Part shown: piece by piece, positions 2,401 to 13,684 of the stretch
Numbering within the stretch: position 1 is the stretch's first letter
How the letters are laid out: the number at the start of each line of letters is the position of its first letter
Origin: a virus
Taxonomy: Duplodnaviria; Heunggongvirae; Uroviricota; Caudoviricetes
DNA length: 14,514 nt
Direction: 5' to 3' (one strand)
IMG/VR virus record: IMGVR_UViG_3300046516_000964
Notes under the pieces: generated by a model
What the model saw: only the letters and a program-made list of their open reading frames with translations
What the model was told of the DNA's origin: nothing
Database searches by the model: none
Program-made: the position numbers and the translations under genes

Positions 2401-2450
2401 TGCACACCACCTTTCAGAGAGGTCAAGATGGGGTGCTTATCGGACTCTAG

Positions 2451-2479
2451 TTGCACTAACCATGCGGAACGCGTAGTCT
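2451..2479 (+). promoter_or_regulatory. Putative sigma70/SigA promoter TTGCAC-N17-TAGTCT, probably giving a leaderless or near-leaderless mRNA
   Basis: -35-like hexamer at 2451-2456, 17-nt spacer, TANNNT -10 at 2474-2479, ATG 8 nt later (2488), and no Shine-Dalgarno sequence. Confidence 0.5.
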
Positions 2480-2487
2480 TTAGACCC

Positions 2488-2763
2488 ATGGACAGGAGAA
2501 AGTTCCTCAAGATCGTTGGTGTTGGTACGGCCGGCTTGTTCGCCGGGGTCGAGCTCCCGAAAGCAGAAGCGGTTGAGCCGGAGCTCGTCGTCTCCAAACC
2601 ATTGACGAACATCACCGTCGAGTACATGAAGAAATCCTCTTGGAGGATCCCGTTCGGGCCGCTGCCCCCGCCCAACCCGGAAGTCGGGGACAGGTGGTGG
2701 AGGCTAGGAGAGTACGGTCACTACGAAGTGACCACGTTCAACGGACATCATTGGAAACGCTGA
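2488..2763 (+). CDS. Small twin-arginine (Tat) signal protein (91 aa; start moved to ATG 2488)
   Basis: MDRRKFLKIVGVGTAGLFAGVELPKAEA has an RRxFLK motif, a hydrophobic region and an AxA cleavage site. The ~63-aa mature part contains a P-P-x-P-x-x-G-D-x-W...F-N-G-x-x-W motif. Confidence 0.7.
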   Translation: MDRRKFLKIVGVGTAGLFAGVELPKAEAVEPELVVSKPLTNITVEYMKKSSWRIPFGPLPPPNPEVGDRWWRLGEYGHYEVTTFNGHHWKR

Positions 2764-4218: not shown

Positions 4219-4619
4219 AGGGTCACCCTAACGACCCACGCGTTCCGATTGTCGAACGGGGGCCCGTAGAACGTCGCGATCCACACCGCCTGCAACGACT
4301 GGGGCTCTGGGTCGAACAACCCCGCCACGTTGATCCCGATGCTCTGCGGTGTGAACCGATCGTACAACCGGAAGCCCTTCACGTCAGCGTCGTCACCGTC
4401 GAAATAGAGGTCGAGGACCGGCTCAACCACCGTTCCGTTCGGGAGCCTGATCGCCTCAACACCACCCGTCACCATCCCGTGCTCCTCGAGAAAACATTTC
4501 TTCACGACTGGAGGACGGTACGAAGGTTCCGCGTGGCCGTCCCACCCGTCGAACCCCTCCCACACCACAGGAATGTTCATCATCTGCTTGATCTCCGGAG
4601 GACAGGAGGGGATCGGCAT
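4215..4619 (-). CDS. Head-to-tail stopper (head closure protein) (134 aa)
   Basis: 'D.H.EPSY..P.....C......R..NG..V......Y.......DR.T' pattern. Lies directly after the adaptor. Confidence 0.7.
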   Translation of the reverse strand: MPIPSCPPEIKQMMNIPVVWEGFDGWDGHAEPSYRPPVVKKCFLEEHGMVTGGVEAIRLPNGTVVEPVLDLYFDGDDADVKGFRLYDRFTPQSIGINVAGLFDPEPQSLQAVWIATFYGPPFDNRNAWVVRVTL

Positions 4620-5107
4620 CAGAACTCGATAACCTCCTCGTCGACCCCCTCGTCACCGCCACCGGTAGCAGGGATCAGGCTGTCCGTGGTGTACCCACCG
4701 ACGCGAGGATTTTCCATCATGGTTTTCGTGAACACCGGCTGGATCAGATCGGTGTTCGTCGCGAAGTTGATCTGATCGGTGAGGTTCGCGCCACCCACCC
4801 ACGGAGGAGTCGTACCCAGTGATTTGGAGCGCAGCATGCGAGCCATCTGGAACCACTGGTCCGCCATCTTTGAGTACGTGATCTGCATCGAGCGACCCAA
4901 ATGCACATCCGCCTTGCGGAGCACCCTGCGGCCGATCATCTCGGCGCAACGGGCCGCGGCAGCCCACATGTTCCGCTCCGCCGCGAGCGCGTAAGCGATC
5001 TCCTCGTCCTGGAGCTGCTGATCGTTTGGATCAGTGTCCTGCAGCTCCGCGCGCACCTGCATCACCGGGTCGGTGTCGAGGGCCTCCGGGTTGTAGTTCC
5101 AGCCCAC
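4619..5107 (-). CDS. Head-to-tail adaptor (162 aa)
   Basis: 'VR..L.DTD....L.DEEI.Y.L......AAA..A..I...' and 'G...I.YS..A.Q....A..LR' are typical adaptor motifs. First gene of the neck block. Confidence 0.8.
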   Translation of the reverse strand: MGWNYNPEALDTDPVMQVRAELQDTDPNDQQLQDEEIAYALAAERNMWAAAARCAEMIGRRVLRKADVHLGRSMQITYSKMADQWFQMARMLRSKSLGTTPPWVGGANLTDQINFATNTDLIQPVFTKTMMENPRVGGYTTDSLIPATGGGDEGVDEEVIEF

Positions 5108-5421
5108 TAGGTGATCTCCAACAGGCCGGCCTTAATCACAGGGACCTCGGGGTTGTCGGTGACCTTCACATACACATCGTAGAACCCATTGATGAGGATC
5201 GCTGACGTTCCCGGCCCGACCAGAGCTTGCGCGTAATAGATCCCGTTCTCGGTTAGCCACTGGCCGGCAACGAACACCGTCGGATCATCACCAGGAGCAG
5301 GAAACGAGAGAGCAACATTGTCACCGGTCGGGTCACCGCCAGTGATCGACTCAGCGACAGGCACGGTGACGTACTGCTTCGATACGGAGGAGACTTGGAT
5401 GTCAGCGAGCGGCCCGGTCAC
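5107..5421 (-). CDS. Small beta-sandwich virion protein (BppU-N/Ig-like, 104 aa)
   Basis: 'S.QYV.VPV...DPT', 'A..LVGP......G.YDV.V...D.PE..V...G.L.IT' pattern, recalled from actinobacterial prophage neck regions. Coupled on both sides. Confidence 0.6.
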   Translation of the reverse strand: MTGPLADIQVSSVSKQYVTVPVAESITGGDPTGDNVALSFPAPGDDPTVFVAGQWLTENGIYYAQALVGPGTSAILINGFYDVYVKVTDNPEVPVIKAGLLEIT

Positions 5422-5654
5422 AAGTCACCTGTCTTCCAATCGTCCGTTGGACTATCGGTATCCCAGCCGGTCCCCGGCTCACGCGTCTGATCGTTCTCCG
5501 TTGGTGCATCGGGAGTCCAGTCCGACCGAGCTCGCATCGTGTTCCACAGGAGCCCGGGAGCACCAACGAGCCACTTGATGCTCTTTTTGATCGTGCCAAT
5601 GACCGTCGGCGGTGAAGCGAACGGAGACTGTCCGAAGTAGCTACCTCCGAACAT
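5418..5654 (-). CDS. Hypothetical virion-associated protein with MFGxxxFGxxPF N-terminus (78 aa)
   Basis: Coupled ORF. Aromatic/Gly N-terminal motif and Trp/Asp-rich C-terminus. Confidence 0.6.
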   Translation of the reverse strand: MFGGSYFGQSPFASPPTVIGTIKKSIKWLVGAPGLLWNTMRARSDWTPDAPTENDQTREPGTGWDTDSPTDDWKTGDL

Positions 5655-6294
5655 TGCCGAACCTGCCGACCGCGCAATCGTTCGCGCCTTCGAACTGCCA
5701 GTACTCCACCTTGATGCCGCGCTGGTCGAACGGGACCTCGGACAGATAGTTCCTTCCTGATGGGCCGGAGAGGTAGACGTCCCCGCCGAGCTCCTCCACC
5801 ATCATCGCGATCCGATCGCTGATCGGAAGCAGCTCGTACTCTTCGTCACCCTGAGCCCACACGGCGTGACCGCCGTCCAGGTGTGACTGAAAATGCCAGG
5901 AAGTTTGAGAATCAAAGCGACGCTGCTCGCCAGTAGGATCGACCAGAAGACGAATCAACGCAAGGTTGAGACCGACCAGGAGACGGTAGGGACGCATGAT
6001 CTCCTCGCATAGATCCTCCACCAATCCACCTTTGTAGTGTTGGCGGAGCGCCTTCGCGTGACTTTCACGCCACCCACCGTGTTCGCTGATTCGCACCCGG
6101 TTGATCGGACCCATGTCGGTTCTGCGCTCCACCGGTACGGTCAGCCAGGAACCATCCGGCATACGGTTGCGGTTCGTCCAACCACCGTGGCTGTACTGCA
6201 CCTCGTCCAACCAAATCACTGCGTTCGCAGCCTCAACTTTCTCGATCACCGAGAGGCCGGGGAGGTAGTTCGCTTGGTGGGCGGTAACGATCAT
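5641..6294 (-). CDS. wbqC: WbqC-family protein (putative sugar N-glycyl transferase; 217 aa, start moved to ATG 6294)
   Basis: MIVTAHQANYLP...LDEVQY....W.NRN, 'WLTVPV', and 'YLSGPSGRNYL...F....I.V' are WbqC signatures. ATGA overlap with the methyltransferase stop. Confidence 0.88.
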   Translation of the reverse strand: MIVTAHQANYLPGLSVIEKVEAANAVIWLDEVQYSHGGWTNRNRMPDGSWLTVPVERRTDMGPINRVRISEHGGWRESHAKALRQHYKGGLVEDLCEEIMRPYRLLVGLNLALIRLLVDPTGEQRRFDSQTSWHFQSHLDGGHAVWAQGDEEYELLPISDRIAMMVEELGGDVYLSGPSGRNYLSEVPFDQRGIKVEYWQFEGANDCAVGRFGNVRR

Positions 6295-6848
6295 CGCCAC
6301 ATCACCAGTAGCAGATCGTTGTGTCGGTGCTTCTCAACGCGCCAACGGTCAGCGTGATTGCGAGCGAAATCGCAGAGGTCGTACTCGTCGTAGCGCAAAC
6401 ACGACTCATCCTCGCCGCAGTACAGAGATGCGACAAGAACGCGATCGGTGATCTCCCACAGAGACATCAAAGTCCGCCAGGTTTCGTAAGTCGATCCTGG
6501 GAGGTTGAACGTACCGATGCACACAACAGCGTCGAATCGGCGCCAGGACAGCGCAGATGTGAACTCATGGTCTGGGTGCTCATCCCTGGCGCGCTGAACC
6601 ATCGACTGCGACCAGTCATAGCCGAAATACTCATGAGAGGGGATGTGCTCGCTGAATGCTCCCGTCCCACAACCGAAGTCAAGAAGAGAAGTCGAGAGGG
6701 ATCCTTTGAGCGCATCGAGAGCAGCCTCAAACCTGTCCTTCTGCCCTTGCGCGGACCACATCACCGCACCGAGGGAGGTGGGCTCGTCAGCGCGAGCGCT
6801 CCAAGCCTCCGGGGTGTTCAGGCTGCGCGCTTCTGCATTTCCAGACAC
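6291..6848 (-). CDS. Class I SAM-dependent methyltransferase (185 aa)
   Basis: Motif I LLDFGCGTG, then 'Y.GYDWS..MV..AR..HP', 'FDAVVCIGTF', and an N-terminal 'WS..GQ..RF' of the kind seen in glycan-locus methyltransferases. Start is uncertain (GTG 6848). Confidence 0.88.
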   Translation of the reverse strand: MSGNAEARSLNTPEAWSARADEPTSLGAVMWSAQGQKDRFEAALDALKGSLSTSLLDFGCGTGAFSEHIPSHEYFGYDWSQSMVQRARDEHPDHEFTSALSWRRFDAVVCIGTFNLPGSTYETWRTLMSLWEITDRVLVASLYCGEDESCLRYDEYDLCDFARNHADRWRVEKHRHNDLLLVMWR

Positions 6849-8365
6849 CTGTTGATCATCCTCCGTTTTCGCTCCGTCTGGCCTGGCTGCAAGTACAGCC
6901 TATCTGGGGCATCAGCGAACTCCCTGACCGCGTACCCGAAATCAGCTCGGACCCAGTTCACCAGTGTCCCGAAAATGAAGTCCGCCTCGACGAGAACATC
7001 GTCGTCCCACGGGTGCTGCTCGAAATACTTGGAGAAGATCTCCTGCGGCAGGTGTGCGTCGCAGAGAGACCCCGCGCCGAACAGCGCGGTGTGCTCGTAC
7101 CCCGCTCCCCTTATCCAAGCATCGTCCATGTTCGCGATCGCCACCCCCGGTTGGTAGTTGTCGAGCAGAGCCTTGTGGTTCGCGAAGATCACGTCGTCGT
7201 CCTGCCAGTACACCACCGAGTGGCGTGCCTGCGGGATCGCAGCGTAACGACCGAATATCTTGTAGTCGTAGTCGCTCTTCGAGTTGTCCCAGACGATCAC
7301 ATCCGAATAAGGGAGCGTTTCTAGACAAGGGTTGAGATCGACGTCTCCACGAGTGACGATGATCGCGGTGATCTCCTTCGCTGTGATCGGAACCCTACGG
7401 CGACGCTTGTGCTTGCAGCGGATATCCGGCAACGGAGGCATCAGTTCGCCAGTTGGAAGCTGCACGATCTCCGCTGGCTTTCTGTAGGCGCCCGGTTCAA
7501 CGAACAGAACCTCGCCGGTGGGAAACGGGACCTTGTCGGCTACGCTGTTCGAGCACCCTGCCAAGGCGCGGAGAGCTTCCGCGCGGTTCTGCTTCATCTC
7601 CGCGGCGGCGATCAGAAGCTTCGCACCCTCGTAGTAGTTCACGTGCTCACACAGGAGCATCCCGGCCTGGTAGAGGGACTGGTAGACCTCTTCGGCCCAC
7701 CCTCCGAGCGACGCACGGATCTTGTACGCAGCGATCGCCTTCTCTACTTGGTCCAGGTCTCGGTAGGACTGCGCGAGGTAGAACCAGGAGCGCGCATCAG
7801 CCGGATTCTTCCCAACCTCGTCGGCGAGCTCAACCGCGTCCTCCTCGATCTTGCCAGGGCGATGCCCCCCGCCACCGTGGTCAATCAGCCGAACCTGGTT
7901 GAGCTCTATACCGTTACTGGGCCCGTCGTCGCAGGCCAGATAACAGTGGGCTCTACCGGCGTAGAAAAAACTCCGCTTGGTAGAAGTGAGAAGTGGGAGT
8001 GGGTAGCGAAGCCCGCGATCGAAAATCGGGAGCATGTACTCGTCCTGGTCCAGCTCGGGGATCTCACCCTCAATCACGAGTTCCATGTCCGCGTCGAGCA
8101 TCAGGCAGTAGTCCGCACCCGTCTCGCGCACCTTCTTGAGCAGGATTGTGCGGTTGATGTAGTGACGCTTCCACTCCTCCTGGAACTCCGTGAGCGGGAT
8201 TCTGTCTCGTAACGTGTTACGCACGATCTCCATCGTGTTGTCGGTGCACCCGGTGTCGATGAAGAGAGCTCGATCAACACCAGGGAACTTGAGCGCGCTC
8301 TCGATGCAGCGCTCGATATGTGACTCCGCGTCCTTGACGTTGAGGGCTAGGCAGACGGAGGTCAC
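6818..8365 (-). CDS. Bifunctional glycosyltransferase: GT2 + TPR + second GT-A domain (515 aa)
   Basis: N-terminal GT2 (CL...VK...IERC, DTG.TD.T, LMLDAD at aa 91-93). TPR helices (RSWFYLAQSYRD, GGWAEEVYQSLY). C-terminal GT-A domain from about aa 332 with VIVWDNS and YWQDDD (aa 388-391). Confidence 0.9.
   Translation of the reverse strand: MTSVCLALNVKDAESHIERCIESALKFPGVDRALFIDTGCTDNTMEIVRNTLRDRIPLTEFQEEWKRHYINRTILLKKVRETGADYCLMLDADMELVIEGEIPELDQDEYMLPIFDRGLRYPLPLLTSTKRSFFYAGRAHCYLACDDGPSNGIELNQVRLIDHGGGGHRPGKIEEDAVELADEVGKNPADARSWFYLAQSYRDLDQVEKAIAAYKIRASLGGWAEEVYQSLYQAGMLLCEHVNYYEGAKLLIAAAEMKQNRAEALRALAGCSNSVADKVPFPTGEVLFVEPGAYRKPAEIVQLPTGELMPPLPDIRCKHKRRRRVPITAKEITAIIVTRGDVDLNPCLETLPYSDVIVWDNSKSDYDYKIFGRYAAIPQARHSVVYWQDDDVIFANHKALLDNYQPGVAIANMDDAWIRGAGYEHTALFGAGSLCDAHLPQEIFSKYFEQHPWDDDVLVEADFIFGTLVNWVRADFGYAVREFADAPDRLYLQPGQTERKRRMINRCLEMQKRAA
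8208..8221. promoter_or_regulatory. Dyad site 3 CGTAAC-GT-GTTACG inside the glycosyltransferase gene
   Basis: Both 6-bp arms are identical to sites 1 and 2. Encoded as CGT AAC ACG TTA CGA (RNTLR), which includes an AT-rich TTA Leu codon. Confidence 0.55.
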
Positions 8366-8553
8366 CTGTGATCTACCTTTGCCATGATCTTTCGTTCGTG
8401 TGGCAAGGGAATAGAACTCGTCGCACCAGTTCTATTCGCCGACGAGCCGATGCAGAGCTCATGAATATGCCACTCGGGGCCGAACTGTGGTCCAGCAATG
8501 CTGAGCCAGTGATCGTTGAGGGGCCCACCGCAGATCGCGCATTTATCAGTCAC
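8362..8553 (-). CDS. Cys/His microprotein, probable Zn finger (63 aa; start moved to GTG 8553)
   Basis: MTDKCAICGG...WHIHELC gives CxxC...HxxC. GTGA overlaps at both ends. Confidence 0.6.
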   Translation of the reverse strand: MTDKCAICGGPLNDHWLSIAGPQFGPEWHIHELCIGSSANRTGATSSIPLPHERKIMAKVDHR

Positions 8554-8786
8554 TGCACCAACACCATGACTTCCATTGGGTGCTCGTCCCAACTCGATGG
8601 GCCGGTGCAGCACGGCTCAAGCCCCGCGATGTCGGAACGGTAGGTGTTCCGGCAGACGGGGCAGCGGTAGGTGAGCACGCCCTTCTTCACCGGCTGCAAC
8701 ATCAGCGTCTCCAGATCCTCCGGGTCGCTGGTGTCGGGCAGATTAACCCAATCAGGGACCAGGACCCCGGTCGGTAGGCGACGCAT
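8550..8786 (-). CDS. Cys-rich microprotein, probable Zn ribbon (78 aa)
   Basis: YRCPVCRNTY...PCCTG...H gives CxxC plus CC/H. In-strand ORF filling the gap. No clear RBS. Confidence 0.6.
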   Translation of the reverse strand: MRRLPTGVLVPDWVNLPDTSDPEDLETLMLQPVKKGVLTYRCPVCRNTYRSDIAGLEPCCTGPSSWDEHPMEVMVLVQ

Positions 8787-8801: not shown

Positions 8802-9146
8802 CTACGTGCTGATGACGCCGGAAGCAAGCCCGTTCACGGTGGCGCTGTTCGCATACCCGCACAGGAACGAGTTCACGGGAACCGTGTACCAGCCGTTCAC
8901 GAAATACGGGGACGACGCTGTCAGAGGGTACGAGTCGACGAAGAGCGCTGACGCGATCGCTGTCGCACCCGTGACTCCCATCTGTACGTTCACCTGACCG
9001 GTCGCTCCGGCCTGACCCGTGAACGCCATCGAACGGCACGCCGACTCGGCAGAACCGGTGTTCTGATACTGCCAGGTCGCGATGTTCGCCGCAGCGTTCC
9101 CCATCGCCTTCGTCGTAATCAGAGTTTTCACGGTGTATGTGGCCAT
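8802..9146 (-). CDS. Small beta-rich virion accessory/adaptor protein (114 aa)
   Basis: Strong RBS (GAAAGGA). 'N.G.......I....G.....A.....DSY.L.A......NG...V.....L.GYA....VN...SG' resembles the small jelly-roll proteins found next to phage fibres. Confidence 0.7.
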   Translation of the reverse strand: MATYTVKTLITTKAMGNAAANIATWQYQNTGSAESACRSMAFTGQAGATGQVNVQMGVTGATAIASALFVDSYPLTASSPYFVNGWYTVPVNSFLCGYANSATVNGLASGVIST

Positions 9147-9188: not shown

Positions 9189-9806
9189 TCAAAGGTTCCC
9201 ACCCCCGAAAGCGGAGACCCTGCCGACCGTTTGGGGAATCGTGAGCCCGATCTGGCTGGCCACAACGCTGTTGCCATCAGATGTGGTCAGAACCTTCACC
9301 CCGTTCTTGTAGCCAATCAACGAGGTTCCGATCGCACGCGCCCCAAACTGGTCCCCCGGGCTCAGAGAGATCCCCGTTGCTGTTGCCAGAACACTCGGGG
9401 AGCTAGCCGCAAAAGACGTGAACGCGAACTCTCCGCTGTTGGTGGAATCCCACGTGAACCGGTACCCGCGCTGCAAGCCCCCCGTGAGAGCGAGTCTGAG
9501 CCAAACCCCAATGATGATCCCTCCGGTGGGCGCAACGGAAACAGTCATCCACGCTTCCTGGTCGCGATTGAAAGTCGTGCTGATCGCCTGCGAGTTGAGG
9601 CTTGCTGCCGAACCGGCAGCCAGGTTAGTGGAAACTTTCAGCGCCGTATTGACCCCTGACTGCCCGTTCCACGTTGCCGACCATGTGGCCCCACTCGATG
9701 AGGTCGCAAGCGGGTTCTCGTCCGCGCGAGTGAAGTTGTCGATCTGGGCAGTGAACGGGAAGGCCGCAGGCACGAATCTTATTGGGGAGCGAATACCGAG
9801 CTGCAT
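9189..9806 (-). CDS. Lectin/ConA-like beta-sandwich virion protein (205 aa; start moved to ATG 9806)
   Basis: TAATG coupling at 9804-9808. 'DNFTRAD...W', 'GY...W', 'GD......IGT.L..YKNG.......D.....S..GL' pattern. The upstream 107 codons of the track ORF overlap another gene. Confidence 0.7.
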   Translation of the reverse strand: MQLGIRSPIRFVPAAFPFTAQIDNFTRADENPLATSSSGATWSATWNGQSGVNTALKVSTNLAAGSAASLNSQAISTTFNRDQEAWMTVSVAPTGGIIIGVWLRLALTGGLQRGYRFTWDSTNSGEFAFTSFAASSPSVLATATGISLSPGDQFGARAIGTSLIGYKNGVKVLTTSDGNSVVASQIGLTIPQTVGRVSAFGGGNL

Positions 9807-10507
9807 TAGAAAAACCCGGGATCGTTGATGTTGATCGTGGAGTTGCGCGGAGTGCGCGCTGCTCCTTTGAAGGTGGCGATTGCGCCGGAATACACGACCG
9901 CCGCCCCGGTAGAGAAAGTCGGTGTGGCGCTCTGCGTCCCCGTCGCGGACACGATTTGGTACTCCGCAAACGACTGCCTGGTCGCGGTGCCGAACCCGGC
10001 TGTCCCCGTCGTGAATAACGAGTAGGCGGCATCTTTCGTCCATGTTTTCCCAGTAGTGGCAATACAGACACCAGCAGTCACCAGCTCCGATGCCTGACTC
10101 GTTGTCCCGGACGGGCCAATCGCACATGCCCCACCAGCCGTAGAGGTGCCCGGAGAGTTTGCTGAGGCGTCAAACCACCCGCTCGTCAGGAGGCCGGAGA
10201 ACTCCTCGATAATGATTCCTCGCAACACCCCCGAGGTTGCACCAAAAGTGATTGTGTCGCTAGTCGCAATCCCATTCGGAGCGTAGATAGAACCGATCGC
10301 GAACAGAGTCCCAGTTCCCACTATGACGTTCGTCTGCGCGGTCGCACCAGACGCGCTTGTGCTCAACGTCGCAGTTGTAGCGGAGTTAGCACCCCAGAAA
10401 CAGATCGCGTGGTTGCCCGCAGCGACCGCCGTTGCGGGATTGATCGCGAGGCTCGCCCCGGACGGGGCTTGGTTCACGTAGTTCTCATGCACATAGACGA
10501 TCGCCAT
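9806..10507 (-). CDS. Ala/Thr/Ser-rich beta-sandwich virion protein (233 aa)
   Basis: Start abuts the fibre gene stop. 'EFSG.......D', 'T.QASELV.AG', 'EYQIVSATGTQSAT' pattern of putative fibre head/decoration domains. Confidence 0.7.
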   Translation of the reverse strand: MAIVYVHENYVNQAPSGASLAINPATAVAAGNHAICFWGANSATTATLSTSASGATAQTNVIVGTGTLFAIGSIYAPNGIATSDTITFGATSGVLRGIIIEEFSGLLTSGWFDASANSPGTSTAGGACAIGPSGTTSQASELVTAGVCIATTGKTWTKDAAYSLFTTGTAGFGTATRQSFAEYQIVSATGTQSATPTFSTGAAVVYSGAIATFKGAARTPRNSTININDPGFF

Positions 10508-13500
10508 TTAGACCCTCGTGTAGGCGATCATCACGCCGATCAGCCCGGCAGAGACCGTGAGGGTGTCCGCCGTGGCGGCAGCACGACGGTAGACACGGAA
10601 CAACGCGAGATTCGACGCAGCGCCCGTCACACCACCGGTTGTGATCGCTGAGGTCGCAGAGGTTGTCATCTCGAACGCTCCTGTCGCTGCGGACTGATAG
10701 TTCTGAGTGACCTCCTGCCCTGTGCCCCACGTCTGGTCGAGAGTGCGGCCGCTGCTGTACTGGTTCCACTGAGCACCCCATGTCACTGCTCCCGTTGAAG
10801 CCGTCGCAGCGACCCCGATCGTCCACACGAACGTCGCGGTGACGGTACCGCCGTCGTAGTCAGACGGGAGCATCAGATTCCCTTGCGCGTAACTCGTTAC
10901 GGCATCAACAAACCCAAGCGTGTAGTAGTCCTGAAGGTTCGTGGTGGTCTCGTTCAACGTCACCGCAGCAGCTCCTGATGTGTTCGAACCCCACATTCCT
11001 GCTCCGGACAGCCAGATCTGCCCCGCTGGCTTCGACCCGGTCGGGCCGGTGGCACCTGTCGCGCCGGTAGGTCCAGTCGCGCCCGTTGATCCCTTCTGAC
11101 CGTCCAGACCATCAAGACCGTCCTGACCAGACGGGCCAGTGAACCCTGTGGCGCCAGTAGCTCCGGTAGCACCAGTCTGTCCGCGCTGACCCGTCGAGCC
11201 GGGAGGGCCCTCCAAACCATCGAGGCCATCCGACCCGGCGGAACCAGTCGCTCCCGTTGCACCAGTGGCTCCCGTAGGACCAGTCGCGCCGGTTGTTCCG
11301 ACACCAGCGCCAGCGAGATCCCCGAACAAATCCCATGTATCCGTCCCCGTCTTAACAAGCGTCGCGCCGGAGTACCGAGCACGGAACAACAAAGACGGGG
11401 TCGCGTTTACAGTGACCCCCCCAGCCCCAGCAACCGTGACCTGGCCTGTGTTGATCTGCGCTAGATCAATGCGAGTCCCGATGGGGAACGCAACCACCGA
11501 GTTCGGCGGGACAGTGAGAGCGATCGGAGACGAGTTCGACAGCGTGACGAGCTCGCCAGCGTCGCCCAGAACAAGCGTGTATGTCGTGTTGGTCTGCGCG
11601 TTGATCGTTTGGGCGGCGTCATAGGACGGCCCCGTTGAGCCCTTGTTCCCGTCAAGGCCATCGAGTCCATCAGAGCCAGTTGATCCCGTCACACCTGTAG
11701 CACCAGTGACTCCCGTAGGGCCAGTAACACCAGAGACACCAGTTGACCCCGTAGCGCCGGTCGCGCCAGTCGATCCTGTCACGCCCGTAACACCCGCAGA
11801 TCCCGTCGCACCCACGTTCCCGGCGCGGCTAAAGCTGACGAGGAGTGCATCGCCGTCCCACCACGGCGCCGTCACGGTCTGCGACACGAATGTCGCTGTC
11901 AGCGCCGCGTAGGTGCCGGAACTCGTGTCGACGGCAGTGATGTTCCAGGTCGCGGATTGCGTCTGGTTCCTCGTGGTCGAGATCACGATGGTGCCCTTCA
12001 CCGTGTTCGTGGAACCGCCGATCGCAGCGAGGAGCGCCGAGTAGTCAGCGCCATCAGAGCCGGTGTTCGAGAGCCGGATCGTGGTGATGTTGTTGACCTG
12101 CGTGTCATTGCCGCGCATGAACCCGGAGCCGGGGTCACCGGCCGTCGTAAGGGCTGAGTAGGTGTACGGGAACGTGAGCGCCCCAGCCGCGCCCGTGACG
12201 CCCTTGTTACCAGCGAGTTCGAGCATCGCGAGCACCGAGTCGCTCGTGTTCAGTGTCCCGTTCGTGACGCCGTTCTGGACATCGAGGTCGACGACGCTCG
12301 CGGGCGCGATCGTCCAGGTGTCGTTGATGAAGGTGTTTAGGGATGATCCGTTGTTAGCGGAGCCGCCGTGAAGCACGGCCCGTTTCCGTGCGGTGTCGTA
12401 GACCATCACGCCGCGGTAGCGCGGGTACGGGAGGTTCAGGCTCGTGAGTTGCGTCCAGGTGGTCCCGTCCCACTTCCACATCACGTTCGTGAGCGTCCCG
12501 AAGTAAAGGTCTCCGCCAAACATGACGACGTAGCCGCGGTCGGCGTCATACGCGATCACTGCCCCGTCGACGTTCGTTGGTTTCGTCGCGGGGGACTGCA
12601 ACGTCCAGTCGGTGCCCGACCACAGGTAGGTGGAGCAGGTGTCGATCGTTCCGAACACTCCGGGGGAGACGTGGACGAGTTTGCTGTTGGTGCCGTCGTA
12701 GACGAGCGCGGGCCACGCCGCCGCTGCCGGGGTTGTCGACGGCGTCAGCTGCGTCCATGTCGAGCCGTCCCACTTCCAGGTCTGTGTGTTGTTGCCGCCC
12801 GACTGCCCCCCGAACCAGAGCGCGTACCCGTGGTTCGTGTCCCAAGCGGCGCGGCCGTAGTAGGCGGTGCGCGTCCCGACTGGTGTGAGTTGCGTCCAGT
12901 CGGAGCCATCCCACTTCCATGTCTCGTTGTCGGCAGATCCGCTCGCGATCCGACCGCCGGAGAGGATCACAACGCTGTTGACGTGGTCGTAGAACATCAC
13001 CGACCCGTACCGCGCCGACGGCGCGTGCGTCGGCGACTTCAGCGTCCAGGTAGCACCATCCCACACCCACGTCTCGGCGCTGTAGGTACCGCCAATGACG
13101 AATCCGCCGAACAGCACGGCCTGGTTGTTCGTCTCGTCGTAGGTCATCGCTGTGTCGAAGCGAGCCGACGGCGCAGTCGGCGGCTGCTCCTGCCCCCACG
13201 ACCCGGGCGGCGCGATCGACGTGACGTCCCACGACTTCATCGTCGACTGAGTCGCAAAGTTCGCAACACGAAGCGTTCCCTTAATCGTGGAAGTGCCGCC
13301 TCCGAGCGAGTTGAGGAGCGCCGACCAGTCGGTGCTGTTCGCGTCTGTCTCGTGGATCGAGACGCGCGTGATCGCAGACGGCTTGTTGAACGTCAACCCC
13401 CCCGAACTCGGGGTTAGCGTCGAGGGTGCGGTGATGGTGTAGGGGATCGTTAGCGGCCCGCCGTAGTCACCAGTGGATCCAGGACGCCCAGGCCCTCCGT

Positions 13501-13684
13501 CCAGACCATCCAAACCGTCAGACCCGGCGGACCCCGTTGGCCCGGACGGCCCGGTCTGACCGGTCGCTCCGGTGACACCCGTAGCACCAGTTGTTCCAGT
13601 GGCACCGGCGCCGGTCGGGCCAGTCTGGCCGCGAAGACCACTCTCCTTAATCGCCCCCGTATCGTCATAGACAGACCAGCCCAT
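10508..13684 (-). CDS. Collagen-like fibre protein with duplicated beta domain, six-blade Kelch-like beta-propeller, INAQT domain and C-terminal beta-sandwich (1058 aa)
   Basis: Three GXY tracts (20, 22 and 30 triplets), six TWxWDG-type blades (aa ~161-460), an INAQTxTTYTLVLxDAG module (aa ~689-791), and a C-terminal 'F.D....YAQ...LP.DY.GGT.T..F.W' domain. Confidence 0.9.
10888..10901. promoter_or_regulatory. Dyad site 4 CGTAAC-TC-GTTACG inside the fibre gene
   Basis: 14 of 16 bases match the palindrome (GCGTAACTCGTTACGG, 10887-10902). Encoded as GCC GTA ACG AGT TAC GCG (AVTSYA). Confidence 0.55.
11030..11299 (-). repeat. Collagen GXY tract 3 (30 triplets, 18 GXT)
   Basis: aa 796-885 of the fibre, counted by hand. 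Confidence 0.9.
11624..11821 (-). repeat. Collagen GXY tract 2 (22 triplets, 14 GXT)
   Basis: aa 622-687 of the fibre. Confidence 0.9.
12303..13218 (-). repeat. Kelch-like beta-propeller repeats bounded by the 10-bp direct repeat GGCGCGATCG (12303-12312 and 13209-13218)
   Basis: Six ~50-aa units (PSAR..M.YD....V.FGG......TW.WDG..W). The two repeats are 906 bp apart, so they are in frame, and both encode I-A-P. Confidence 0.8.
13454..13639 (-). repeat. Collagen GXY tract 1 (20 triplets with one GA interruption, 10 GXT)
   Basis: aa 16-77 of the fibre. Confidence 0.9.

Follow-up and report, generated by a model that had tools for sequence, protein, structure and literature searches.

In Bacillus anthracis, the collagen-like Gly-x-Thr nap formed by BclA carries an O-linked rhamnose-anthrose glycan, the terminal sugar of which is both O-methylated and N-acylated, and the Ant operon provides for the synthesis of anthrose in nucleotide-sugar form. 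In Clostridioides difficile, the protein SgtA, which consists of a GT-A domain plus TPRs within 358 residues and whose gene adjoins bclA3, transfers beta-O-GlcNAc in vitro onto Thr of GPT collagen repeats (PMC7157674). The Listeria flagellin O-GlcNAc transferase GmaR and the enzymes SunS and ThuS also glycosylate proteins or peptides in the cytoplasm, their substrates being flagellin or small Cys peptides; SunS is encoded on the prophage SPbeta. Phages may also decorate their own particles: according to a source citing Freeman 2023 (PMC11600133), the mycobacteriophages Che8, Corndog/Cluster O and Myrna modify virion structural proteins with their own glycosyltransferases, and in Cluster O an O-methyltransferase and three glycosyltransferases modify the capsid and the tail tube. 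In the bacillithiol (BshA-BshB-BshC) and mycothiol (MshA-MshB-MshC) pathways, a glycosyltransferase is followed by an LmbE/PIG-L de-N-acetylase and a class I aaRS-like ligase of the BshC/MshC type, which puts an amino acid onto the freed sugar amine (PMC6178380).

The locus compared here with these systems belongs to an uncultured soil phage of the Caudoviricetes (IMG/VR record IMGVR_UViG_3300046516_000964), of which a stretch of 14,514 nt, hereafter the window, was analysed. It is read, with moderate confidence, as a cassette expressed late that glycosylates proteins in the cytoplasm and tailors the glycan, its targets being the phage's own collagen-like fibres, which would be decorated before assembly or in its course. 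Virion glycosylation is supported by comparison, not proven, and we infer both the modification of the virion and its chemistry.

Organization of the locus

Gene calling places three overlapping open reading frames at 5641-8365 on the minus strand: a three-module glycosyltransferase of 515 residues (6818..8365), a minimal class I SAM methyltransferase of 185 residues (6291..6848) and a WbqC-family protein of 219 residues (5641..6300), or 217 if started at the ATG at 6294. The overlaps amount to 31 nt between glycosyltransferase and methyltransferase, 10 nt between methyltransferase and WbqC, and 14 nt between WbqC and the next gene, and overlaps of 1-4 nt carry on past the cassette among the neck genes. 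Two small, translationally coupled genes (5107..5654, minus strand; 78 and 104 aa; overlaps of 14, 4 and 1 nt), which are conserved in locus L058, lead from WbqC to the connector block. The first gene of this block (4619..5107, minus strand) encodes a 162-residue protein whose sole match is phrog_1732, a family with no assigned function (4.7e-12), and which is, judging by its position, probably the head-tail adaptor; the gene is conserved downstream of the cassette in L013 and L058, and in a second lineage a phrog_442 head-tail adaptor occupies the equivalent slot. Further downstream follow genes for the tail terminator (PF12691), the major tail protein, a chaperone and the tape measure.

The gene immediately upstream of the glycosyltransferase encodes a Cys-rich protein of 78 residues with a CxxC ... 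CC-TGPS motif (8550..8786, minus strand) and is next to that of a Ser/Thr-rich protein of 114 residues (8802..9146, minus strand), which possibly serves as a substrate or a fibre accessory. Neither protein has family matches. Homologues of the former are found in L013, L058 and L014, and of the latter in the same loci (61-69% in L013 and L058, 27% in L014), in both cases with the position kept. Two called genes for proteins of 233 and 205 residues, which gave no match in the family scans (9189..10507, minus strand), separate these companions from the gene of a 1058-residue collagen-like Gly-x-Thr fibre with an inserted Kelch beta-propeller (10508..13684, minus strand), which lies upstream of the cassette. 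The major head protein is encoded just beyond the window (phrog_1005, 2.6e-70); its gene and two collagen-like fibre genes of the Gly-x-Thr kind precede the cassette in an uninterrupted operon, in which the neck and tail genes come next. Between positions 4500 and 10600 no promoter-like sites were found, and the five terminator-like sites do not exceed the number in shuffled sequence (mean 3.2). From this operon structure alone, the cassette would be expected to be expressed late.

The original prediction had described a three-gene cassette embedded in the virion structural operon. The identities of its three reading frames, GT2-TPR-GT, SAM methyltransferase and WbqC, are borne out by Pfam and predicted folds, and its embedding by the overlaps into the neck genes and the lack of promoter-like sites in the block; replication genes, which it had reported as missing, were not found in the window either. 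Its size has to be revised, since the 114- and 78-residue companions travel with the three genes.

The glycosyltransferase

The model of the 515-residue protein (pLDDT 91.6) comprises a GT-A/GT2 domain (residues 1-165), a TPR-like helical domain of six helices (residues 172-276), a K/R-rich linker of low confidence (residues about 280-325) and a GT64-like GT-A domain (residues 326-515). The residues D91 and D93 of the first transferase domain (D91-x-D93) and D389-D390-D391 of the second (DDD389-391) are invariant in an alignment of 35 homologues with 41-80% identity. Residues 12-98 match GT2 families of Pfam above cut-off (PF13704, 6e-07; PF00535, 3e-06), TPR families match residues 175-269 weakly and below cut-off, and in the PDB profile search residues 173-266 are covered by designed-TPR and SunS matches. 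The kinship of this part with protein and peptide glycosyltransferases, which had been proposed from the sequence, finds support in profile matches to GmaR (2e-13) and SunS (7e-11) and in the fold comparison, where SunS and ThuS match residues 1-294 with Z 23-24 (SunS: Z 24.2, rmsd 2.4 over 262 aa) and the alignment extends through residue 294. GmaR, SunS and ThuS are thus the best profile or fold matches of this region, although their identity to the phage enzyme is only about 14-15% and they have neither a GT64-like domain nor WbqC or methyltransferase partners.

The second transferase domain was missed by sequence searches, and the PDB profile search gave no significant match for it. In the model, residues 326-515 resemble the GT64 enzyme EXTL2 (1on8_B; Z 14.8, rmsd 2.9 A over 177 residues) and EXT1/EXT2 (Z 13.0), in agreement with the predicted GT2-TPR-GT architecture. 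The domain is called GT64-like by its modelled fold and is not filed as a GT64 family member, because fold and DxD motif match but the sequence model PF09258 does not: a Pfam scan of residues 318-515 with E up to 10 returned only Glyco_transf_21 (E 0.23). As a lead only, PF09258 is found on 16% of the members of a neighbour cluster in the ESM Atlas.

Given that no structure matches better than those of SunS and ThuS, a SunS-like enzyme could also S- or O-glycosylate the Cys-rich 78-residue peptide, as SunS does with sublancin; the product would resemble a glycocin or be a small glycosylated protein, either of the virion or accessory. Four lineages have the gene with the CxxC...CC-TGPS motif immediately before the glycosyltransferase, and in L012 two small Cys-containing genes lie directly downstream of it. 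Such a role is nevertheless highly improbable: the surroundings hold no transporter, immunity or thiol-disulfide oxidoreductase gene, the Cys pattern resembles a zinc ribbon, the setting is a virion operon, and glycocin loci have no counterpart of the second GT domain, of WbqC or of the methyltransferase.

Hardly credible is the attachment of a tailored amino sugar to the phage DNA shortly before packaging, given that the glycosyltransferase is of the protein/peptide type with TPRs and matches no DNA glycosyltransferase in Pfam, PHROG or the PDB. The genome of roughly 78 kb does encode, elsewhere, ParB-like proteins and DNA methyltransferases, which would fit DNA decoration; its Pfam labels include no hydroxymethylase or thymidylate-synthase-like gene, and the ParB gene is about 20 kb away from the cassette, whose neighbours are head and neck genes.

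WbqC and the methyltransferase

The WbqC protein matches PF08889 with E 3.6e-28 (99.3 bits against a cut-off of 21.3; profile positions 1-186 of 218). Its model (pLDDT 86) is closest to BshC (4wbd_A; Z 11.8, rmsd 3.0 over 193 of 219 aa), followed by class I LysRS (Z 10.3), while MshC matches with Z 6.3 and many class I aaRS, ATP sulfurylases and cytidylyltransferases with Z 6-8. Matches in AFDB include Rv1507c, as well as BshC entries, the latter at E about 1e-4. The model therefore predicts a class I aaRS-like (HUP), BshC-like nucleotide-binding core. At the sequence level, however, the protein, which with 219 residues is far shorter than BshC (about 540), matches no BshC model: a Pfam scan (E up to 0.1) gave WbqC only, and a phmmer search against the PDB (E up to 1) gave no match.

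In bacterial relatives of WbqC, the gene of a PIG-L/LmbE deacetylase is found directly upstream in 32 of 41 loci. The pair of PIG-L and WbqC in Paenibacillus, for instance, lies between GT4 genes within a Wzy-type polysaccharide cluster, an arrangement reminiscent of the BshA-BshB-BshC and MshA-MshB-MshC series (PMC6178380), and PIG-L also accompanies WbqC in L014 (order GT-WbqC-PIG-L) and in four distant viral loci. Because of this pairing and the closeness of the model to BshC, WbqC is proposed to be an amino-sugar N-acylating or aminoacylating ligase, whereby the earlier idea of an aminoacyl modification gains support. The likeness to the bacillithiol and mycothiol pathways has its limits: fold similarity to BshC cannot fix the chemistry of WbqC, as the catalytic mechanism of BshC itself is not established (PMC6178380), and the proposed acceptor is a protein-linked glycan instead of a small thiol precursor. 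The phage also has a methyltransferase at the place where WbqC relatives have the deacetylase; no PIG-L was found in the 39-kb record of the phage or among the precomputed Pfam labels of the roughly 78-kb genome, which, as WbqC would need a free amino group, counts against the proposed role.

The 185-residue protein is classified by its sequence motifs as a class I SAM-dependent methyltransferase with a Rossmann domain: its residues 50-116 match Methyltransf_12/25/23/11, all four models above cut-off in Pfam, and the translation contains the glycine-rich SAM motif LLDFGCGTG. A PDB search gave nothing significant, with sugar N,N-dimethyltransferases among the matches at E 0.05-0.08. Fusions were found in none of its 51 metagenomic relatives, and its pairing with WbqC is seen in two phage lineages and is constant in the phage's own clade.

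The surface-polysaccharide clusters in which bacterial WbqC relatives occur (PMC5532660), such as the Paenibacillus locus, would also suit enzymes that act as a moron in the late operon and, in the infected host, remodel an envelope glycan such as O-antigen, teichoic acid or capsule intermediates, for instance so as to block superinfection or release progeny. GT2 enzymes often use lipid-linked or polymer acceptors, TarS, TarP and RmlT match the fold with Z 13-14, and the nearest PHROG family is labelled "moron, auxiliary metabolic gene." Remodelling of the host is still quite unlikely, as protein/peptide enzymes reach Z 23-24 compared with 13-16 for polymer enzymes, in agreement with the sequence profiles, and Pfam, PHROG and NCBIfam give no membrane-transporter, flippase or Gtr-type match for the three proteins. 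Host-conversion genes, in addition, are not usually coupled in translation to neck genes or kept in a fixed head-adaptor slot across unrelated lineages, and the link to collagen genes would be left without an explanation.

Collagen-like fibres as probable targets

Collagen-like genes are common among phages. The 1058-residue fibre matches Pfam Collagen (3.6e-26), Kelch (6.5e-14) and PHROG tail-fibre families, and has 69 triplets with Thr at the Y position in 58% of them; for the three collagen-like proteins of the phage, the third of which is placed at the tail tip, this share is 58-75%.

The order GT-(MTase)-WbqC recurs in L013, L014, L015 and L058 within phage morphogenesis modules. In the lineage of L059, the genes follow the order TerL, portal, major head, MTase, WbqC, collagen-like virion protein, GT2-TPR, head-tail adaptor, major tail, so that two or more unrelated phage lineages have GT2-TPR, WbqC and methyltransferase after the head gene and ahead of the head-tail adaptor. 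Among 31 dereplicated loci with GT2-TPR or phage-clade WbqC, 17 contain a run of 12 or more collagen triplets, compared with 2 of 21 control viral loci with a GT64-like domain alone or a distant WbqC alone, a small and host-unmatched set (Fisher p = 0.001). Of the 11 groups with phage-clade WbqC, 9 have collagen in the vicinity, and the remaining two reach the contig end within 3.4 kb upstream. The collagen-like gene lies 2.7 kb upstream of the glycosyltransferase in the phage described here and only 0.4-0.8 kb from it in L015, L074, L073 and L108, and WbqC is about 0.5 kb from collagen in L061, L062 and L064. The original prediction had named no target; judged by the loci compared, the likelier targets are the collagen-like Gly-x-Thr fibres rather than capsid or tail tube, since collagen is enriched near the cassette, and the case would then resemble that of SgtA and BclA3 in C. 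difficile.

SgtA resembles the phage enzyme in being a soluble GT-A domain followed by TPRs whose gene is near a Gly-x-Thr-rich collagen-like gene, a comparison of architecture drawn from the published description (PMC7157674). Thr of the repeats is the proven acceptor for SgtA (PMC7157674) and the presumed one for the phage enzyme, which differs in its fused GT64-like domain and its WbqC and methyltransferase partners; BclA3, moreover, belongs to the spore exosporium and the phage fibres to the virus particle.

It is unlikely that the nearness of collagen is incidental and that the cassette glycosylates other structural proteins, for which the major head protein, the tail tube, the Ser/Thr-rich 114-residue protein and the 233- and 205-residue proteins would be candidates. 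About half of the GT2-TPR loci have no collagen-like gene within the available DNA, and the genes for the 114- and 78-residue proteins accompany the glycosyltransferase in three lineages. In L012, the glycosyltransferase homologue is located between portal and capsid genes, with neither collagen nor WbqC, and loci of this kind indicate that other virion proteins may be targets. The targets shown for mycobacteriophage glycosyltransferases, furthermore, are the capsid and the tail tube and not collagen-like fibres, and those systems have no WbqC (PMC11600133). On the other hand, the enrichment and the very tight adjacency of collagen in several lineages argue for the fibres, and SgtA, the only GT-A plus TPR enzyme biochemically proven to act on a structural fibre, uses collagen GPT repeats. 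Nor were close relatives seen among the mycobacteriophage enzymes: a tblastn search of 50,697 deposited phage records with the 515-residue protein (E up to 1e-5) gave three hits, one in a Tunturiibacter jumbo phage and the others in two uncultured phages; no actinophage was among them.

Proposed pathway

In the favoured decoration of the collagen-like fibres, the N-terminal GT2 plus TPR module would act like SgtA, GmaR or SunS: the TPR domain would grip the protein substrate, and a first sugar, probably HexNAc from a host UDP-sugar, would be placed onto Thr/Ser of the Gly-x-Thr repeats. The fused GT64-like domain, whose closest fold match is an alpha-N-acetylhexosaminyltransferase, would attach a second sugar, the amino group of the glycan would be acylated or aminoacylated by WbqC as a BshC-like nucleotide-binding enzyme, and the small methyltransferase would methylate the glycan or the added group. 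A glycan of the BclA type could be the kind of product within reach of the cassette, although anthrose comes from a nucleotide-sugar pathway and no pathway of this kind was found in the phage. The predicted absence of nucleotide-sugar synthesis genes extends beyond the window, with no PIG-L, epimerase or NTP-transferase match in the 39-kb record and none of these synthesis genes among the precomputed Pfam labels of the roughly 78-kb genome.

The cassette had also been thought to go beyond systems of glycosyltransferases only. This holds for the tailoring pair of WbqC and methyltransferase and for the GT64-like fusion, which are new, whereas methylation alongside glycosyltransferases is already known from the Cluster O phages (PMC11600133), where an O-methyltransferase serves the phage's own virion proteins.

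The position of the fibre genes, with the major head gene on one side and that of the head-tail adaptor on the other, favours appendages of the head or neck over fibres of the tail tip as the decorated structures; the third collagen-like protein, at the tail tip, could also be a substrate. A second glycosyltransferase island is located between terminase and portal in the roughly 78-kb genome, which, in addition to the cassette, suggests that this phage invests heavily in glycans.

Gene order and genomic setting

The stretch corresponds to the minus strand of bases 6317-20830 in the 39-kb IMG/VR virus record, and the same phage was found as a 78-kb contig. A search of sequencing runs for this phage returned soil and rhizosphere metagenomes as DNA sources and no RNA data set, and identical cassette proteins are present on several contigs from different samples. 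All credible genes of the window lie on the minus strand. In transcription order, the block starts with the prohead protease, a 390-aa protein, the major head protein (phrog_1005, 2.6e-70) and two small genes, followed by a 596-aa collagen-like protein, 108- and 327-aa proteins, a 1058-aa collagen-like fibre with a Kelch propeller (10508-13684), and proteins of 233, 205, 114 and 78 aa. Then come the glycosyltransferase (GT), methyltransferase and WbqC genes, proteins of 78, 104, 162, 134 and 220 aa, the tail terminator, the major tail protein, chaperones, the tape measure protein and the tail-tip genes, among them a third collagen-like protein. The original prediction of a cassette embedded in a structural gene run is thus borne out, with head and collagen-like fibre genes before it and neck and tail genes after it. 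The prohead protease (L129:4947-7358, on a contig of the same phage) is an 803-aa fusion in which NUDIX and histidine-phosphatase domains precede Peptidase_S78_2.

The three gene identities proposed from the sequence hold as well: the ORF at 6818-8365 matches GT2 and, weakly, TPR, the one at 6291-6848 class I SAM methyltransferases, and the one at 5641-6300 WbqC (3.6e-28). Neighbours among the three share 31 and 10 nt, WbqC shares 14 nt with the gene that follows it, and short overlaps of 1-4 nt run on into the neck genes. The cassette block contains no promoter-like site, and terminator-like sites are not in excess. An 83-aa ORF (8362-8613, minus), which carries a CxxC...HxHxxC pattern and a GTGA overlap with the GT start, is a doubtful gene that is not conserved in relatives and was missed by the gene finder; if it is discounted, a 185-nt gap is left there.

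Genes for nucleotide-sugar synthesis, which had been reported as missing from the window, are also absent from the 39-kb record, searched directly for them and for PIG-L. The 78-kb contig was read gene by gene through precomputed Pfam labels, its final 8 kb via a related contig only, and none of these labels denotes nucleotide-sugar synthesis, PIG-L or a hydroxymethylase. The sugar donors must therefore be host-derived, and the reading of the cassette as a DNA-modification system was set aside, as no gene in the genome labels backs DNA glycosylation. A further glycosyltransferase island of ~7 kb (L130:5727-12961 on the 78-kb contig) lies between terminase and portal and comprises three GT2, one GT6-like and several unlabelled genes, a sign that the phage invests heavily in glycan building beyond the window.

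The fused glycosyltransferase and its companions

The structure model of the 515-aa GT, built from 35 homologues (mean pLDDT 91.6), agrees with the predicted GT2-TPR-GT architecture. The model places a GT-A domain at residues 1-165 and a TPR-like region of six helices at 172-276; a basic linker of low confidence then leads to a second domain, Rossmann-like, at 326-515. SunS and ThuS, which are glycocin S-glycosyltransferases, align with residues 1-294 at Z 23-24, far above the polymer-acting GT2 enzymes TarS, TarP and RmlT (Z 13-14). The best solved profile relatives are GmaR, the flagellin O-GlcNAc transferase of Listeria (2e-13), and SunS (7e-11), so that the suggested kinship to protein and peptide glycosyltransferases is found both by fold and by profile. 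A glycocin reading was weighed and set aside.

In sequence searches the C-terminal domain had no significant match, either in Pfam at E up to 10 or in a PDB profile search, and fold comparison alone resolved it: residues 326-515 superpose on the GT64 enzyme EXTL2 with Z 14.8 and an rmsd of 2.9 Å over 177 residues. An invariant DDD motif is kept in this domain, which, given a superposition without a significant sequence match, is GT64-like in fold only. The fused GT2-TPR-GT64-like enzyme is a possible tool for one-pot protein O-glycosylation. A longer variant of ~694 aa (685-735) carries an FkbM methyltransferase inserted between the TPR and the GT64-like domain (L013:8144-10228 in a related viral locus, protein P0015; relatives P0013, P0016, P0018 and P0023), so that one polypeptide can hold a methyltransferase together with the GT modules. 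For the separate methyltransferase of the cassette, matches in PDB and NCBIfam were too weak for substrate assignment, and its homologue list held no informative fusions. On other viral contigs (L077, L079, L080 and L081), stand-alone GT64-like genes of ~190 aa form tandem arrays of two or three, with no GT2-TPR, WbqC or collagen-like gene nearby.

Two small proteins always precede the GT across three to four lineages: a Ser/Thr-rich protein of 114 aa (8802-9146, minus) and a protein of 78 aa (8550-8786, minus) with a conserved CxxC...CC-TGPS motif. The same region lies at L013:7458-8037, L058:1207-1753 and L014:9430-10004 in relatives. The conserved block therefore has five genes rather than the three originally described. 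Possible roles of these companions are as substrates, adaptors or parts of the fibre; when GT residues 1-290 were modelled together with the 78-aa protein, the complex scored 0.00 with a partner pLDDT below 50, too low for either reading.

Association with collagen-like genes

Viral loci were dereplicated to 60 groups, and a collagen run was counted if it had at least 12 triplets in the available DNA. Such runs occur in 17 of 31 loci with GT2-TPR or phage-clade WbqC and in 2 of 21 control loci, drawn by a GT64-like domain alone or a distant WbqC alone (Fisher p 0.001), the controls being few and not host-matched. Among the phage-clade WbqC groups, 9 of 11 have a collagen-like gene, and the other two reach a contig end at most 3.4 kb upstream. 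Most of these runs have Thr or Ser at the Y position in 60-85% of their triplets; in the three collagen-like proteins of this phage, Thr fills it in 58-75%. In Clostridioides difficile, SgtA, a 358-aa GT-A and TPR protein whose gene adjoins bclA3, transfers beta-O-GlcNAc onto Thr of the BclA3 GPT repeats in vitro (PMC7157674). This pair is a precedent exact in kind for the proposed action of a GT2-TPR beside a collagen-like gene. Roughly half of the GT2-TPR loci have no collagen in the available DNA; for this reason, and since the controls are few and not matched by host, other targets are possible.

The two large collagen-like genes sit between the head gene and the adaptor, and the third collagen-like protein is at the usual tail-tip position. 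Judged by position only, the two large proteins are thus likelier to be appendages of the head or neck; SPP1 gp12 is an example of a collagen-like capsid accessory protein (PMC6316719). Kelch beta-propellers are found in both the 1058-aa fibre and the 669-aa tail-tip protein (L131:16482-18491, on another contig of this phage), where they may be the receptor-binding parts.

Distribution of the cassette

Near-full-length GT homologues number ~75 and phage-type WbqC proteins several hundred, all of them metagenomic. Among genome bins, the closest WbqC match belongs to a Solirubrobacterales bin. Against deposited phages, megablast of the cassette and tblastn of the 162-aa connector protein gave no match, and tblastn of WbqC against 50,697 phage records gave a single distant one, Ralstonia phage RP13 (22% identity); at these thresholds, deposited phages are therefore without the cassette. 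The contexts fetched for divergent homologues are a phage morphogenesis module in every case. Locus L013 combines a GT2-TPR-FkbM-GT, a methyltransferase, WbqC, a further GT2, a collagen-like gene and connector genes; L014 has a collagen-like gene, GT, WbqC and PIG-L; in L015 a collagen-like gene directly precedes GT and WbqC; and in L012 the GT stands by itself, with portal genes on one side and capsid genes on the other. In a second lineage (L059 and relatives), whose head genes differ, the order runs from terminase, portal and major head protein through methyltransferase and WbqC to a collagen-like virion protein, a 354-aa GT2-TPR of SgtA size, the head-tail adaptor and the major tail protein. 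The cassette genes thus stay in the slot from head gene to adaptor even as their order varies.

A putative ligase role for WbqC

No assigned function for WbqC was found in the literature. In an exhaustive alignment against 48,161 representative chains, its structure model (pLDDT 86) is closest to BshC, the putative bacillithiol cysteine ligase (Z 11.8, rmsd 3.0 Å, 193 of 219 residues), followed by class I lysyl-tRNA synthetase (Z 10.3). Weaker matches are to other class I synthetases, ATP sulfurylases and cytidylyltransferases (Z 6-8) and to MshC (Z 6.3). A phmmer search against PDB returned nothing and Foldseek against PDB weak matches only (best BshC, E 6e-3), whereas the exhaustive aligner gave a clear BshC match. 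The nearest reviewed protein in AlphaFold DB is Rv1507c of M. tuberculosis, itself uncharacterised, with many BshC entries after it.

Of 41 loci with the closest cellular relatives of WbqC (L017-L057), from Actinomycetota, Bacillota, Chlorobiota, Pseudomonadota and one archaeon, 32 have a PIG-L/LmbE gene immediately upstream in the same orientation, and the two genes often overlap. The Paenibacillus contaminans pair is flanked by GT4 genes in a Wzy-type polysaccharide cluster, and a Streptomyces operon contains a ProRS paralogue, GT4, WbqC, LmbE, a tRNA and murG (PMC10404621). This is the order of the BshA-BshB-BshC and MshA-MshB-MshC pathways, in which GlcNAc is added, the acetyl group removed and an amino acid placed on the freed amine (PMC6178380). 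Since the fold is closest to BshC and the gene context, with its PIG-L and GT4 neighbours, mirrors this order, WbqC is read here as a putative nucleotide-dependent ligase that would re-acylate a sugar amine, a role that we infer by analogy. WbqC (PF08889), a large family found in O-antigen and capsule clusters, thereby gains a proposed function that can be tested.

The 39-kb record has no PIG-L. Phage-clade WbqC proteins (50-84% identical) have a small methyltransferase as partner instead; in the L014 lineage, PIG-L follows WbqC. A speculative and rather improbable extension is that WbqC, as an ATP- or aminoacyl-tRNA-dependent BshC-like ligase, puts an amino acid or acyl group on the amino sugar of a protein-linked glycan, which the methyltransferase then caps. 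If so, the collagen-like head or neck fibres would be coated with an aminoacylated, methylated, anthrose-like glycan, a chemistry undescribed on any virus, and WbqC, large and uncharacterised as a family, would receive its first assigned function.

Relation to known virion glycosylation

To our knowledge, virion glycosylation is experimentally known for a few mycobacteriophages only, in which it blunts antibody recognition. Judging by the cassette, uncultivated soil phages may have a separate, widespread route that is directed at collagen-like fibres and relies on different enzymes; its chemistry and target are proposed from comparison. Such a route bears on adsorption, on particle stability in soil and on immune recognition of phages, and the cassette offers a concrete, cheap test of SgtA-type enzymes on phage collagen repeats. 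Two papers that cite Freeman 2023 describe phage virion proteins glycosylated by phage-encoded transferases, with an O-methyltransferase in Cluster O (PMC11600133, PMC13313380). Virion glycosylation with methylation is therefore not new, and the claim that the cassette goes beyond glycosyltransferase-only systems stands in part. New are the GT64-like domain fused to the GT, the WbqC-methyltransferase tailoring pair conserved within the head-neck module and the structural and contextual case for a predicted BshC-like WbqC. No paper was found that describes GT2-TPR genes beside collagen-like genes in phages.

Other features of the window

Between the genes for the tail terminator and the major tail protein, the operon is broken by two small opposite-strand genes, at 2428-2763 (plus) and about 2765-2945; they encode 111 and 60 aa and were called by the gene finder in three samples. 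The 14-bp palindrome CGTAAC-NN-GTTACG occurs four times (783-796, 2941-2954, 8208-8221 and 10888-10901) against a chance expectation of 0.01, with one copy within the GT gene and one within the fibre gene.
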